This document shows positions 4,911 to 61,811 of a stretch of 64,000 nt of DNA, in pieces. A model generated the notes under the pieces. The model saw nothing but the letters and a program-made list of their open reading frames with translations, was not told the DNA's origin and ran no database searches. A program made the position numbers and the translations under genes. How positions within the stretch are numbered: the stretch's first letter is position 1; each line of letters opens with the position of its first letter. The stretch is from an uncultured delta proteobacterium (GTDB taxonomy: Bacteria; Desulfobacterota; Desulfuromonadia; Geobacterales; DSM-12255): the NCBI GenBank assembly GCA_963787125.1, contig CAWBBV010000004.1, positions 64,001 to 128,000 on the forward strand. The letters are read 5' to 3'.

Positions 4911-4963
4911 AATTCCGGGGACACCATACTTAATTCAATAGGCCACCAATCGATCGTATTTTG
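4911..4963 (+). repeat. Repeat A plus degenerate repeat B
   Basis: AATTCCGGGGACACCATACTTAATT then CAATAGGCCACCAATCGATCGTATTTT. Confidence 0.85.
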
Positions 4964-12514: not shown

Positions 12515-12555
12515 AGTTCCGGGGACAGCATACTTATCTCCTAACCGCCTTTTTT
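12515..12555 (+). repeat. Repeat A plus right half of B
   Basis: AGTTCCGGGGACAGCATACTTATCT-CCTAACCGCCTTTTTT. Confidence 0.8.
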
Positions 12556-24828: not shown

Positions 24829-24878
24829 ACTTCAGGGGACAATACTATAATTCAAAAGGCAACAAACGGTGACTCTCT
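24829..24878 (+). repeat. Repeat A+B composite (last copy seen in the array)
   Basis: ACTTCAGGGGACAATACTATAATT-CAAAAGGCAACAAACGGTGACTCTC. Confidence 0.8.
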
Positions 24879-57236: not shown

Positions 57237-57248
57237 GTTGAGGTGTCA

Positions 57249-58816
57249 ATGATGACAAGGAAACAGATATTCATCAGTTCCGTGCAGAAAGAACTGGCTG
57301 ACGACCGTCGGGCGCTGAAAGAGTACGTGCATGGTGATCCACTGCTCCGCCGCTTTTTCGAGGTGTTTCTCTTCGAGGATCTACCTGCTTCCGACCGGTG
57401 TGCTGATGAAGTCTACTTGTCTGAGGTGGAGCAAAGCGCCATCTATGTTGGCCTTTTCGGCAATGACTATGGCTACGTTAACGCTGATGGGATTTCGCCC
57501 ACTGAACGGGAATTCGACCATGCCACAACCAGTGGCAAGGAACGGCTCATCTTAGTCAAAGGGAATGATGACTCTTCCCGTCATCCCGGAATGCAGGCTC
57601 TGATCCGCAAGGCGGGTGAACAGCTCATCCGCCGCCGTTTCAATGCTATTACTGAATTGATAACCAGTCTTTATGCCGCACTGGTGCAGTATCTGGTGGC
57701 TAATGAGTTGATCCGTAGCGGACCATTTGATGCCGCGCCTTGCCTGAAGGCTACCATTAAAGATCTTGACGAAGAAAAAATTCGGTCATTTCTTCGGAGT
57801 GCCCGTCGGGCGCGGGGCTTTGCTCTTGATGAAGATACAACTCCGGCCTCAGTTCTGGAGCATTTGAACCTGCTTGATCATGGTCGCCCTTCTCAAGCAG
57901 CAGTCCTGCTTTTCGGAGTACAGCCTCAGCGCTACCTGCTTTCATCCGAAGTGAAGTGTATGCATTTTCACGCCACACACGTTCATAAACCGATCCCCTC
58001 CTACCATATCTTCAAGGGACACTCTTCGAACTGGTTGATCAGGCGGTGGATTTCGTGATGTCCAAGATCGATCTCTGGGTGGGAACACGGAAAGACGGTC
58101 CACAGGCGCCGGTGGCCTATGAAATTCCCCGTGAGGTCGTGTCTGAGGCAATTGTCAACGCCGTTGCGCATCGAGATTACACCAGTACCGGCAGCGTCCA
58201 GGTGATGCTGTTTTCAGATCGGCTTGAGATCTGGAGCCCAGGCGAATTGCGACCCCCCATGACTCTGGCCAAATTGATCAGGCCGCACCCCTCCTTGCCG
58301 GTTAATCCGCTCATTGCAGAACCACTTTACCTGAGCAAATATATCGAAAAGGCAGGATCCGGCACCCTCGACATGCTGGAGCTCTGCCGATCAACCGGAC
58401 TGCATCCGCCGGAATTCCGCGTGGATGTTGGTTGTTTCATCGTGACCATCCGTCGCAAGCAGCGCGCGGGTACCGCGAAAAGCATGCAGCCAGAGTCACA
58501 ATCAGAGTCGATGACCCAAGTCATAGGGCTAGAGTCGGGGCTAGAGTCGGGGCTAGAGTCGGGGCTAGAGTCGGGGCTAGAGTCGGAAATATCACAAAAG
58601 GCTTTGGTGGCTCTCACTGCCGGAGCGATGGGGCGTTCGGAGATCGCTGAAGCAGTTGGACATGAGCGAATTTCCGGTGCTATCAATCGTGCAATTAAGG
58701 AACTTTTGCAAAAGAGGCTAATCGCATACACTATTCCCGACAAGCCCAACAGCCGTTTGCAAAAATACCAGCTCACTACAGAAGGCAGGGCTTGGCTGGC
58801 AGGACGACAAAAATGA
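57249..58816 (+). CDS. DUF4062-like + ATP-binding (HATPase_c_4-like) + C-terminal HTH protein, apparent -1 frameshift near 58017
   Basis: IFISSVQKEL, SPTEREFD; EAIVNAVAHRDY, DRLEIWSPG, EKAGSG; TIPDKPNSRLQKY. Adding one G to AAG-GG-ACA joins the two ORFs (IFKGTLFELVDQAVDFV). Confidence 0.82.
58526..58585 (+). repeat. 12-bp tandem repeat x5 (GGGCTAGAGTCG), in frame, encoding GLES
   Basis: Five perfect copies read directly. Confidence 0.95.
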
Positions 58817-59016
58817 AATACCCTCCGCATTGTTGTCAACTGTGACTATTATGAATAATCATTTGTCGAGGGCTGTCTTCCATGACAGGTCTAAAATGTC
58901 CCGAAAGCGCAGGAATCCGAACTGGTGAAACTGCGCAGTGCCGTATACCAGAAAATGAAGCTGTTTAAGGGGTGAACCAAACGGGATGTTTATTAAAAGG
59001 GAGACAAAGGGGACAT

Positions 59017-60703
59017 TCTATAGTCCACCTGTCAACTGAAAATATCGCTCTTTTAAAATCAAATAGTTAGTCATCCTTGCGGATTGCGGGCGCAGCTATC
59101 CCTTGCTTTGGTGAAATGGCGAGTCTCTCACTTACGGCAAACCTTGAGCTTAATCGTTACTTGTATCCGACATCCCCCGCCCGCATCGGGAACTGGGTTG
59201 TCTATCATTCCTTATCAAAGCTCCAAGATTTTAGTGAGATGCCCGGTATTGTCCCTCCCGAGGTCATTGCTGCCTCTACGTTGTTAAACGGGCTTATCTC
59301 GCCTACTGCCTGCCTCTAGGGTGGTTATCCCGTGAAGCAGGAAGGATTAAATGGTTCTCTCTTCTTCATAAGTGTCCAGGCCACAACCAAAAGCTTTGCC
59401 GCCAGCTTGACTTTCATCTTCAGGTTGATGCCGCGCTCAAGCTCGCGACCTCTGATTAATTTGCTAAAGTAAGTCCTGATAACCGGATTCGCTGTGGAGG
59501 CAACCATTGCCGCTTGCACCAGGGCGTAACGCAGTGCCGCTTTCCCTTGCTTGGAGATCACCGGCTTGGCACTGTTGCTGTTCTTGCCGCTCCGCTCGGC
59601 ACTTAAGTCCAGTCCGGCCAGACGCACTACCTGTCCCTGATTCTGAAACCGGACAGGATTGCCGATGGCGGCAAGAACCATGGCCGAAATAATCGGACCG
59701 AATCCGGGAATAGACAGAAGGCACTCATATTCAGAAAACTGCTTTGCTGCTTTTGCCATCAACTGCTCATTACCCTTGACCGTTTCACGAATCGACTTCA
59801 GCTGGCAGACGAGACTCTTGGCCTCCCATCTGGCGGCGTCATGAACAAGGCAACCAACGGACTCTCCGGCAGTCTCCCAAAGCTCGCGCAGACGTCTTTC
59901 CTGTTCTATCCTGATCTTGCGTTTTGTAATGAGCTTCAGGAAGGCGTCGAACTCCATCCCGGCAATTTCCCTCGGGTCCAGACAATGTTCGGCAATTGAA
60001 AGAATCAGGTCGTCCGGTTGCCCTGCTTTGATGTAGAGCTGGTCCAATTCGGGAAAGAACTGGGCAAGAACATTATTTCTCAGCCGCATTTTCAGTGCGT
60101 GCTCTTCCTTCTTCAGCCTGATCCTGAAACCAATCAGGCTGCGTAATTCACGCAGGTTCTCTTGCGGTAGCTCATAGAAGAGGCAGCGGCTCTGGCCCAC
60201 CAGATCGGCAACATTGGCGGCATCCTTCTTGTCGTTCTTGTCCCAACGGCCATCCAGTAGCGCTCGATTCTTTGCCACGGCCACATTGGATACATAGACA
60301 ACCTGCTCCTTCTGTCGCAGCAGATATTCGGCTAAGGGCTTGTGGTAGGAGGCTGTAGGCTCAAGTCCATACACAACCTCGACCAGGCCATGTTGATTCT
60401 TGAGATCTCCGGCTAAACTGCGCAGATTCTCGAATCCTTGTAAGCTGTTGTCAAAGATCATGTTCTTGCGTAGCGTTCTGCCATTGGGTGTTCCAAAGAA
60501 AGCATGGTGCTTGTTCTTGGCAACATCGATGCCGACTAGCAGATGTTTTTCCGAGCCCCTGACTGATGCCTTCATCTGTCTGAACAACGCCAGACTATCC
60601 GTTACAGCTTCCATTCTGTCCTCCTGGTATGTTGAATAAATGGCTATTCAATAACAGGCTGACAATAGAACTACAAGACTGGTAACTTATTATTTTATCT
60701 ATA
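59017..60703 (-). mobile_element. IS110-family insertion sequence
   Basis: Transposase bracketed by a TCTATA direct repeat (59017-59022, 60698-60703); about 300-bp non-coding region 3' of the gene; TTGACA pointing out of the right end. Confidence 0.8.
59325..60614 (-). CDS. IS110 family DEDD recombinase/transposase
   Basis: VGIDVAK, LEPTASYH, KNDKKDA, SIPGFG, AGLDLSAERSGK; GGAGG RBS. Confidence 0.95.
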   Translation of the reverse strand: MEAVTDSLALFRQMKASVRGSEKHLLVGIDVAKNKHHAFFGTPNGRTLRKNMIFDNSLQGFENLRSLAGDLKNQHGLVEVVYGLEPTASYHKPLAEYLLRQKEQVVYVSNVAVAKNRALLDGRWDKNDKKDAANVADLVGQSRCLFYELPQENLRELRSLIGFRIRLKKEEHALKMRLRNNVLAQFFPELDQLYIKAGQPDDLILSIAEHCLDPREIAGMEFDAFLKLITKRKIRIEQERRLRELWETAGESVGCLVHDAARWEAKSLVCQLKSIRETVKGNEQLMAKAAKQFSEYECLLSIPGFGPIISAMVLAAIGNPVRFQNQGQVVRLAGLDLSAERSGKNSNSAKPVISKQGKAALRYALVQAAMVASTANPVIRTYFSKLIRGRELERGINLKMKVKLAAKLLVVAWTLMKKREPFNPSCFTG

Positions 60704-60759
60704 ATTTCCGGGGAAAAATCTGTAGCTCTCAGTCATATATAACGTTGCTTGCTAATCAA

Positions 60760-61749
60760 CTAACCACCTACTTTCAGCAACTTTATTCGCAGTTCCTGAT
60801 CATCTTTCAGCAGTTCTCCACCCCGTCGGACCGCCATTGATGCGCCTGCCGAGCCAATTACCACAATTTTTCCGGCCTCAGTCGCCGTATAGTCGTACTC
60901 ACGCACAGCACAGTAGCAGAAGATGGCTTTGGCTCGTGCGATGGCCCGTTCCTTGCCGGGACTCTGCAGTTTTTCTAAAGGTGCTCCGGTTACGGCACTG
61001 ACTTTATCGAGAAGAGCACTCAATGTAAGTCGCGGTTTATGCAGCTCACCCTGTCTGGCTCCACCGGTCAGTAGTTCGACAAATTCGCCACTGCCGAGTA
61101 TGCGCTCGTCAAAGGCTGCTATTTCTCCGCTCTCCATACAATCAGGCTGGCTGCGCTTCAGTCCGCCTCCAATCAGATCGTTGCGCTGTCCGGCAGCAAC
61201 ACCGTCGGCAATGAACTGCTGATAGGCATGCATTGAGCGGGCTCTTTCCAGCCCAAATCGTGCCAGTATCTCTTCTGTTTCCTGACCTTCCATGGTCCGC
61301 TTACCAAGTAAAACTGCATGGCCGCTCCAGAGGTAGTGCTCCAGTCCGTCCAGATCGGCAACCATTCCGGCCCGTAACGGATTCAGGTGGATATAACGGA
61401 CAAGTTCAAGCAGGTACGGTTCTTCCTCGCAGAGGATGGATTTGTAGCGGTTCTGGAACAGATGACCGCAGCGGTTGTATTTCCGGTTGAAATAGACAGC
61501 ATAGCCGGTGAGCAGGCGACGCATGGTCTCTGCAAGGGAAACAGTGGTCGGCATAAGCAGCAGATGAAAATGGTTCGACATGAGCGCCCAGGCATAACAC
61601 TTTGTGGCGCTTTTAGAGAGCAGGGCAGACAGGCTTGCCACAAAGCGTTCCTTGTCAGCGTCATCAGCGAAAATATCGCGGCGTTCAATCCCGCGAACGA
61701 TGACGTGCTGCAGGACGTGTGGTATGTCAAGGCGTGGTTGGCGTGGCAT
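60760..61749 (-). CDS. REP-associated tyrosine (Y1 HUH, IS200-like) transposase with a C-terminal DnaA-C-like HTH
   Basis: MPRQPR, HVIVRG, MSNHFHLL (HUH), GHLFQNRYKS, YIHLNPLRAG (catalytic Tyr), YLWSGH; tail ERAIARAKAIFCY. Confidence 0.92.
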   Translation of the reverse strand: MPRQPRLDIPHVLQHVIVRGIERRDIFADDADKERFVASLSALLSKSATKCYAWALMSNHFHLLLMPTTVSLAETMRRLLTGYAVYFNRKYNRCGHLFQNRYKSILCEEEPYLLELVRYIHLNPLRAGMVADLDGLEHYLWSGHAVLLGKRTMEGQETEEILARFGLERARSMHAYQQFIADGVAAGQRNDLIGGGLKRSQPDCMESGEIAAFDERILGSGEFVELLTGGARQGELHKPRLTLSALLDKVSAVTGAPLEKLQSPGKERAIARAKAIFCYCAVREYDYTATEAGKIVVIGSAGASMAVRRGGELLKDDQELRIKLLKVGG

Positions 61750-61784: not shown

Positions 61785-61811
61785 TAGTTAATTAGTGAGC
61801 AACGTCCCCCC

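Follow-up and report, generated by a model that had tools for sequence, protein, structure and literature searches.

Introduction

The insertion sequence (IS) IS621 targets repetitive extragenic palindromic (REP) sequences, and REP targeting by IS110-family elements was reportedly described by Tobes and Pareja in 2006. IS621 from Escherichia coli belongs to the IS110 group, works with a bridge RNA and is known from the structures 8wt6-8wt9. Here we analyze a 64,000-nucleotide stretch of DNA from an uncultured delta proteobacterium (the window; positions 64,001 to 128,000 of contig CAWBBV010000004.1, in our numbering G000:C4:64001-128000), which contains an IS next to a gene for a REP-associated tyrosine transposase (RAYT)-like protein. 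This IS is very probably an active or recently active IS110-family element whose target choice is set by its own bridge/seek RNA, encoded downstream of the gene for the transposase. As its target it uses the head of a small family of REP-like palindromes, which flank RAYT-like Y1 transposase genes.

IS621 combines a recombinase with DEDD and Tnp domains (328 aa in the solved chain), a 2-bp core (CT) and insertion without target duplication with an RNA that is encoded upstream of the gene and has two internal loops. The target loop is located 5' of the donor loop, the left guide has the sequence of left target and core on the top strand, the right guide corresponds to the complement of core plus right target, and a -35 element lies in the right end (PMC11208160). 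ISEc21, an IS110-type element with a seekRNA, has its non-coding region upstream and its target inside IS3-family transposase genes, and its RNA presents the bottom-strand match 5' and the top-strand match 3' (PMC11187229). Among the IS110-type elements there are some with a non-coding region on the 3' side, and the transposases of the IS110 subgroup comprise 395-455 aa (Siddiquee et al. 2024, PMC11187229). In the IS1111 group, compared here via ISEc11, ISPa11, ISKpn4 and IS4321/IS5075, the guide RNA belongs to a long non-coding region that follows the transposase gene downstream, and a junction promoter arises on circularisation (PMC11187229, PMC11208160). ISPpu9 and ISPpu10 from Pseudomonas putida KT2440 are multi-copy IS110-family elements that occupy a fixed position inside REPs, have a dinucleotide common to end and target and form circles; ISPpu10 makes a strong hybrid promoter, and ISPpu9 has an upstream bridge RNA with a strong native promoter and, downstream, a separate module resembling a miniature inverted-repeat transposable element, Ssr9 (PMC12288879). 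Finally, in RAYT/REP (REPIN) systems a Y1 HUH gene is bracketed by inverted palindromic repeats, which also form inverted doublets elsewhere and typically number 100 or more.

Copies, ends and target site

In the following, G, C, L and X designate genomes, contigs, loci and metagenome runs, respectively, G000 being the genome that contains the window. Alignment of the genome copies places the IS at 59015..60743 on the - strand, corresponding to 1,729 bp with one copy of the 2-bp core counted. The genome contains eight full copies, all of 1,729 bp with the same ends and with 0-5 substitutions, none of them in the RNA region. Copy identity begins directly after GGGGAC and stops at ...CATATATAAC (60743). 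Upstream of GGGGAC the left flanks of the eight copies are mutually unrelated, whereas GTTG adjoins the right side (+ strand) at every copy with a readable flank and the flanks on that side are REP stems that resemble one another but have diverged (TTGATTAG.., CTTGCTAAT.., CTTTCTAAT..). As AC terminates both the left flank and the IS, the crossover is ambiguous by 2 bp, like an IS110 core dinucleotide, i.e. the core is AC on the + strand (GT in transposase sense) and the placement 59013-60741 is equally valid. The ends of the IS are named in transposase sense: the right end comprises the 310 non-coding nt downstream of the gene for the transposase, the left end the 129 non-coding nt upstream of it.

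All eight copies are inserted at GGGGAC^GTTG (+ strand), which reads ...AACAAC-GT-CCCC in transposase sense and GGGGAC^GTTGTT on the other strand, and the targeted repeat can be written as GGGGAC^GTTG(T/C)T.... Uninterrupted heads (GGGGACGTTG) occur 18 times in the genome (~8.5 are expected from base composition), mostly with the same kinds of stem behind them, and at the C1, C12 and C16 loci an intact head forms one arm of a ~55-bp palindrome that carries the IS in its other arm. In the own genome, all six fully readable occupied sites match AACAAC at 5/6 positions or better; so do 38 of the 4,801 free N9+GTCCC sites, 11 of them perfectly.

Intact counterparts of the target are found beside RAYT homologues of relatives, reading ggggac|GTTGCTAACTAATCAAC in L015 and ggggac|GTTGCTTGCTAATCAAC in L017, and the 27-mer across the join (GGGGAC plus 21 nt from 60744) recurs in L017 with one mismatch and in L015 and L018 with two. 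In addition, the IS is missing from a 236-nt contig of run X1, whose sequence runs ...GGGGGG|ACGTTGC. A search of 41 related genomes yielded no orthologous empty allele of the exact locus, i.e. the left-flank gene next to the RAYT gene, but only paralogous or homologous RAYT flanks; among the contigs of runs X1-X4 (assembled contigs only) none spans the window locus and none contains a circle junction.

A preliminary description of the window had put the ends at a duplicated or shared TCTATA (IS from about 59017/59023 to 60703) within a GGGGAC..TAATT site. Both hexamers (59017-59022 and 60698-60703) are present, GGGGACA..ATACT.TAATT is a real small repeat family of the genome, and the sequence to which the reconstructed empty site had been likened, AGGGGACAATACTATAATT, occurs once in the window at 24834-24852, although not as a copy of an array, as Tandem Repeats Finder lists nothing. 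However, the 40 bp from 60704 to 60743 are 100% identical in all eight copies and never occur in the genome without the IS. Both hexamers are thus internal, and on the + strand the right end lies 40 bp past 60703; by rough arithmetic, a given 6-mer recurs within ~1.7 kb roughly one time in three. Across the proposed join a 27-mer has no match at five or fewer mismatches in the own genome or in any fetched locus. Moreover, the comparison with empty sites of relatives, set beforehand as a test, gave a different sequence, uninterrupted GGGGAC|GTTGCT at the homologous RAYT flank, so that the reconstruction fails. The likeness to 24834-24852 concerns a separate REP-like family, TTCCGGGGACACCATACTTAATTC (7 genome copies versus 2 for a reversed-pattern control), of which copies on C12 (G000:C12:217582-218356) bracket another Y1_Tnp paralogue (C12:217902-218264) and which is never occupied by the IS. 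Hence, a hexamer pair that probably arose by chance had misplaced one end by 40 bp and had created a false empty site as well as a false link to the other repeat family, and ends at TCTATA are almost certainly wrong. What stands is the idea of programmed targeting; the eight copies share one target and insert into a family flanking the RAYT-like gene, albeit not into GGGGAC..TAATT.

With the ends fixed at GGGGAC and GTTG, the RAYT might still mobilise something larger than the IS, a composite or a REPIN-like unit, in which the conserved flanks would be cargo rather than target. GGGGAC and GTTG accompany all eight copies, two of which abut a RAYT gene or a RAYT remnant, while the flank of a third (C2:7835) resembles, by eye, the 3' region of the C3 RAYT gene, and an X3 contig holds two tandem copies 47 bp apart. 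Yet copy identity ends at GGGGAC and after GTTG, the REP stems beyond these points differ, unoccupied intact GGGGACGTTG sites with the same stems exist, and the copies are near-identical within REPs that have diverged. We therefore regard a larger unit as very improbable and the IS itself as the mobile unit.

The X3 contig (record 12, mapping to 59009-59192 and 60520-60747 of the window) stems from a ~90%-identical relative and contains the two copies head-to-tail, separated by a spacer of GTTG, 36 nt and AGGGGAC. This pair represents insertions into two successive REPs; the reading of its joint ('goes back 1739') as a circle junction was rejected because of the 36 extra letters and the two tandem copies. 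GGGGAC heads often occur in short tandem arrays (G000:C12:36306-36420; G000:C16:125226-125280 and 131336-131380). The C12 copy of the IS is adjoined by at least five repeats of a 19-bp unit, GAGGGAACCTTAAGGGGAC, and C16 carries doubled GGACGTGAGGGGGACGTTGTTAAGTTT and GCGGGGCATAGGGGAC units.

Apart from full copies, pieces of the IS are present. A solo 29-nt right-end terminus, 100% identical and followed by GTCCCC, is located at L011:1501-1535 (G000:C4:195382-195416) between short GTCCCCC(C/T)ATGGTC repeats adjoining a REP palindrome and may be the remnant of a deletion or of aberrant recombination. Isolated right-end fragments ending in ...CTATAGAAT|GT occur in the own genome (L010:1501-1583, G000:C24:65761-65843; 83 nt, 83% identity) and in a congener (L028, G007:C206:577-656; 80 nt, 95% identity), and contig ends of G001 carry similar right-end pieces of ~135 nt. 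L009 (G000:C14:70300-70591) is a decayed copy with a related transposase gene fragment (~89% nucleotide identity over 231 bp, residues about 14-106). Just left of the window copy, 58912-58994 (83 bp) is 89% identical to G000:C1:4292-4374, which lies 264 bp past the right end of the C1 copy.

A predicted downstream RNA with putative target and donor guides

In relatives, the non-coding right end remains conserved even where transposase identity has dropped to 48%. From an alignment of 21 homologues (A1), RNAalifold predicts a structured RNA in which a closing stem (GGCG/CGCC) leads to a target-binding hairpin with an internal loop and then to a longer donor-binding hairpin, also with an internal loop (Table 1). 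The helices comprise 39 pairs with 94.1% of the cells paired, as compared to 31-48% when the partners are slid by 1-3 columns, and 22 pairs are changed on both sides, as compared to 4-9 after sliding. None of 500 shuffles reaches any of these measures, although this figure, like the permutation figures below, overstates independence as the homologues are interrelated, a first point against our interpretation. The slid controls preserve the relatedness, yet fall far short. A single-sequence fold of the 309-nt end is uninformative (z-score -0.03), i.e. the structure derives from the alignment only.

In the first loop, the 5' strand carries the left target guide, which equals the consensus copy flank, ...AACAAC|GT, and constitutes the sole hypervariable stretch of an otherwise conserved loop (AACAAC, AGCAAC, AAGAAC, ATGGAC, ATGAGC, AAGAGC and others). 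Over 16 loci, cognate flanks and guides are identical at 6.06 of 9 positions versus 5.17 for non-cognate pairs, a value reached by 7 of 20,000 permutations; guide and left flank share TCAAGAAC in L061, AAGAAC in L065 and AAGAGC in L067, and agree at 6/8 positions in each of L056 and L058. On the 3' strand, the right target guide GGGAC is invariant across the 21-sequence alignment. GTCCCC (transposase sense) follows all eight copies, and in relatives each of 18 right-end flanks is either GTCCC or GTTCC. The loop copy of AACAAC plus GT would thus pair with the target's bottom strand, and GGGAC with the top strand of core and right target. This arrangement follows the pairing rule published for IS621, according to which the left guide pairs with the bottom strand and the right guide with the top strand, the core being included in both (PMC11208160).

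The second internal loop resembles both ends of the IS and may serve as donor loop. Its putative left donor guide, ATAAGGAATGA, corresponds to the right-end terminus plus core, CTATAGAATGT, and guide and end change together in L063/L064 (T to C) and in L058 (A to G), the observed covariation being reached by 206 of 20,000 permutations (n=18). The putative right donor guide region is ATACAAGTAAC; its GTAAC could, as judged by eye, form pairs with GTTAT (core plus left end), one of them a G-T wobble. Of the four guide assignments, this one is the weakest.

Table 1. Positions of the features discussed, numbered from the first nucleotide of the window
Feature	Position	Strand	Remarks
TTCCGGGGACACCATACTTAATTC repeat copies	4917-4942, 12521-12546, 24835-24852		third copy diverged
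Left half of interrupted REP head, GGGGAC	59009..59014	+	at 8/8 copies; last two bases are one core copy
-35 hexamer, TTGACA	59030..59035	-	15 nt from right-end terminus
Predicted bridge/seek RNA, ~187 nt	59117..59303	-	non-coding end downstream of transposase gene
Putative right donor guide region, ATACAAGTAAC	59156..59166	-	3' strand of second internal loop
Putative left donor guide, ATAAGGAATGA	59205..59215	-	5' strand of second internal loop
Right target guide, GGGAC	59251..59255	-	3' strand of first loop; reverse complement of core + right target, GT+CCC
Left target guide, AACAACGT	59278..59285	-	5' strand of first loop; equals left target + core; would pair with bottom strand
Transposase/recombinase gene, 429 aa	59325..60614	-	DEDD RuvC-like N-terminal domain and C-terminal Tnp domain with SG motif
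-10-like TATATA	60736..60741	-	first bases of left end; 17 nt from -35 after circularisation
Right half of interrupted REP, GTTGCTTGCTAATCAACTA	60744..60762	+	inverted partner of 61785-61805
RAYT-like Y1 (HUH) transposase gene, 329 aa	60760..61749	-	HFH and NRYKS motifs in translation
Intact REP head upstream of RAYT gene, GGGGACGTTGCTCACTAATTAAC...	61785..61811	-	inverted-repeat arm

Proposed circle junction and objections to RNA guidance

By homology, the DEDD/Ser recombinase would exchange strands at the 2-bp core without target duplication. Excision as a circle would bring the right-end -35 hexamer to a distance of 17 bp from the left-end TATATA, and the resulting junction promoter would drive the transposase and, via read-through, the RNA. 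A -35-like motif followed by the terminus, TTGAC[AG] plus 14-15 nt plus GT(C/T)C, is found in 18 of 20 sequences (window and 19 loci; exceptions L055 and L061) with varying spacer, and the left end opens with GT|TATAT in all 15 sequences in which the end is readable together with the motif. Thus, the conserved -35 hexamer seems placed to form a junction promoter upon circularisation. The circle junction, 2-bp core included, would read TTGACA-17-TATATA. In the junction TTGACA-16-AATAAT proposed before, TTGACA is real (59035->59030, - strand), whereas AATAAT results from joining at the wrong left end. A simple sigma-70 scan detects no promoter-like site in the linear 129-nt left end; in the window copy, read-through from the upstream RAYT gene on the same strand is also possible. 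Independently, a promoter-like TTTTCA-16-TAGAAT faces outward at 59015-59042 (- strand), its -10 element coinciding with the six terminal bases of the right end, from where transcription into the flank could start.

Several observations weigh against RNA guidance and the junction promoter. TATATA matches TATAAT at only 4/6 positions and lacks the -7 T, and the corrected junction fails a strict sigma-70 rule, as a check by hand of spacers of 15-19 bp yielded no hexamer combining A2 with T6, so that the junction promoter stays an inference. The REP-targeting IS110 element ISPpu9 is described as lacking a hybrid promoter (PMC12288879). The left donor guide matches the right-end terminus plus core at only 7/11 positions, its covariation is broken by L062 and L068 and requires a shifted register in L067, and the right donor pairing is short (~5 nt) and imperfect. 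For the target loop, several relatives have guide-flank pairs with one or two mismatches, four loci combine a flank ..CAGC with a guide ..CAAC, and the G001 guide AGCTAC stands next to AGCAAC three times and to AAGAAC once, i.e. G001 supports the covariation only in part. Rfam contains no match for 58800-60950 (evalue mode). The RNA and its ends are predictions, as are its expression and its binding by the recombinase.

Part of these objections would be accounted for if the ends and the REP target were as described, but the target or the REP hairpin was recognised by protein, the RNA acting within the transposase mRNA as an element for regulation or processing. This would suit the imperfect guide-flank matches and the fact that the GTCCC side and its supposed guide never vary, leaving that half without covariation, and it has a precedent in Ssr9, the small RNA downstream of ISPpu9, which is regulatory or selfish and dispensable for transposition (PMC12288879). 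Against it, the RNA is hypervariable in one stretch only, which belongs to an internal loop and changes with the left flank from host to host, the loop unites the top-strand sequence of left target and core with the complement of core plus right target, i.e. the arrangement published for IS621 and ISEc21, and the transposase scores above the cut-off of the model NF033542 ('IS110 family RNA-guided transposase'). Recognition by protein is thus improbable, and we keep to a target choice set by the downstream RNA.

The RAYT-like gene and its repeats

The RAYT-like protein matches PF01797 (E 2.4e-12; 47.5 bits, above the cut-off of 23) and scores 58.5 bits against NF047646 (REP-associated tyrosine transposase), below the cut-off of 80. 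An inverted repeat (I1) with heads pointing outward brackets its gene (arms 60742-60762 and 61785-61805, 21 nt, 86% complementary), i.e. the gene is flanked by inverted copies of its associated repeat, as in RAYT/REP systems, and the IS splits the head of the arm on the 3' side. The gene has paralogues at 31-49% identity elsewhere in the genome, and GGGGACGTTG heads lie beside four, namely those on C3 and C23 and two on C16. On C24, a copy of the IS occupies the same position in the flank of a RAYT remnant, and among 27 related loci taken from public genomes there are 3 (L052, L057, L066) in which a RAYT homologue follows directly past the left end of the IS. Wherever a RAYT gene adjoins, the left end points toward it, just as outward-pointing heads predict.

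The resemblance to RAYT/REP systems includes inverted doublets elsewhere in the genome. However, the targeted family is small (18 intact and 8 occupied copies) and does not reach the usual high copy number, i.e. it does not comprise hundreds of repeats, the genome contains several diverged paralogues, and the NCBIfam RAYT score remains below its cut-off.

Two observations concern the left end and the second repeat family: a TTCCGGGGA stretch of the IS left end (60707-60715, + strand) is similar to the TTCCGGGGACACCATACTTAATTC family, and an CCCCGGAA motif is kept in the left ends of relatives. On the other side of the IS, two overlapping open reading frames (ORFs) in different frames, 57243-58058 (DUF4062) and 58046-58816 (HATPase_c_4 and Fic-like_C), have the appearance of a single gene that is split or frameshifted, and the latter ORF contains a perfect tandem repeat of 12 bp x 5.1 (58526-58586) encoding (GLES)n.

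Family placement and comparison with described systems

In agreement with the earlier assignment to the IS110 family, the transposase contains PF01548 (E 1.1e-27; 97.2 bits) and PF02371 (E 2.3e-20; 73.2 bits), and it scores 180.7 bits against NF033542 (cut-off 140). It aligns with the IS621 transposase (8wt6) across both domains (E 1.9e-17), including the GID, E, D..DA and SG stretches. The domain order typical of the family, an N-terminal DEDD RuvC-like domain and a C-terminal Tnp domain with a conserved SG, is accompanied by site-specific insertion at a short shared core, with neither terminal inverted repeats nor target duplication, and by a structured non-coding RNA with loops complementary to target and donor, the support for the donor loop being weaker.

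With the IS1111 subgroup the IS shares the guide RNA in a long non-coding end downstream of the gene. The subterminal inverted repeats of 7-17 bp that characterise this subgroup are absent: in the terminal 70 nt the longest exact inverted match has 6 nt, a length equalled in 400 of 500 shuffles, and no subterminal inverted repeat of at least 7 bp is found. The transposase comprises 429 aa instead of 330-350 aa. Moreover, the guide order is reversed, the bottom-strand match (AACAACGT) being located 5' and the top-strand match (GGGAC) 3', and both guides lie in simple internal loops. The IS thus fits all features of the IS110 family that could be tested, but not the IS1111 subgroup.

Among the described elements, the IS resembles IS621 in its recombinase domains, the 2-bp core, the lack of target duplication, the RNA with two internal loops, the order of these loops, the content of both target guides and the -35 element in the right end. 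It differs from IS621 in that its RNA is located downstream rather than upstream of the gene, in the length of the recombinase (429 versus 328 aa), in the core (GT versus CT) and in the right target, which is fixed as GTCCC clade-wide. The order of the strand matches is that of ISEc21, and like other IS110-type elements with a seekRNA the IS has no long subterminal inverted repeats, whereas the position of the non-coding region and the kind of target differ from those of ISEc21. With ISPpu9 and ISPpu10 it has in common the multiple copies at a fixed position inside REPs and the dinucleotide shared by end and target. In contrast to ISPpu9, which has an upstream bridge RNA and a separate downstream module, it carries the matches to target and donor in its downstream RNA.

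Discussion

NF033542, the shared target of eight copies and the covarying RNA portray the IS as an ordinary, neatly documented member of the already known and at present intensively studied IS110 elements that are guided by bridge/seek RNAs and target REPs, and no new principle is involved. Nothing specific on a Geobacter IS110/REP element was found in the literature.

Tentatively, and with more doubt than confidence, one might go further and regard the IS as the representative of a distinct IS110-type clade, in which a 429-aa recombinase is combined with loops and guide order of the IS110 style, but with the RNA moved downstream, and which is specialised on RAYT repeats. The right guide would stay fixed on the REP head, which is conserved (GTCCC, complementary to GGGGAC), and the left one would follow the REP stem of the host, and the IS could be a parasite of the RAYT/REP system. 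The fixed GTCCC right target extends from Geobacter-like genomes out to distant metagenome-assembled genomes, and occupied RAYT-bracketing REPs are represented by the window copy, the C24 copy and the three related loci mentioned above. IS110-type elements with a 3' RNA may already be catalogued as a clade in the supplements of PMC11208160 or PMC11187229.

For the annotation of IS110-family elements, the locus illustrates that ends cannot be read from short repeats, and the annotation of the IS is corrected here. The IS provides a natural example of targeting by a bridge/seek RNA outside the well-studied Enterobacteria and Pseudomonas. Its set of 21 homologous RNAs, with one guide variable and the other fixed, can help to find out which positions of the loops can be programmed, and a guide architecture of the IS110 type downstream of the gene bears on how the RNA moved between the two ends in the history of the family. 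Finally, on the tentative reading above, as the IS cuts exactly between head and stem and has repeatedly landed in REPs bracketing RAYT genes, it could disable the RAYT/REP system or compete with it. The recurrence of an IS lineage in such repeats offers an interaction, open to testing, between elements of two kinds, selfish or domesticated.

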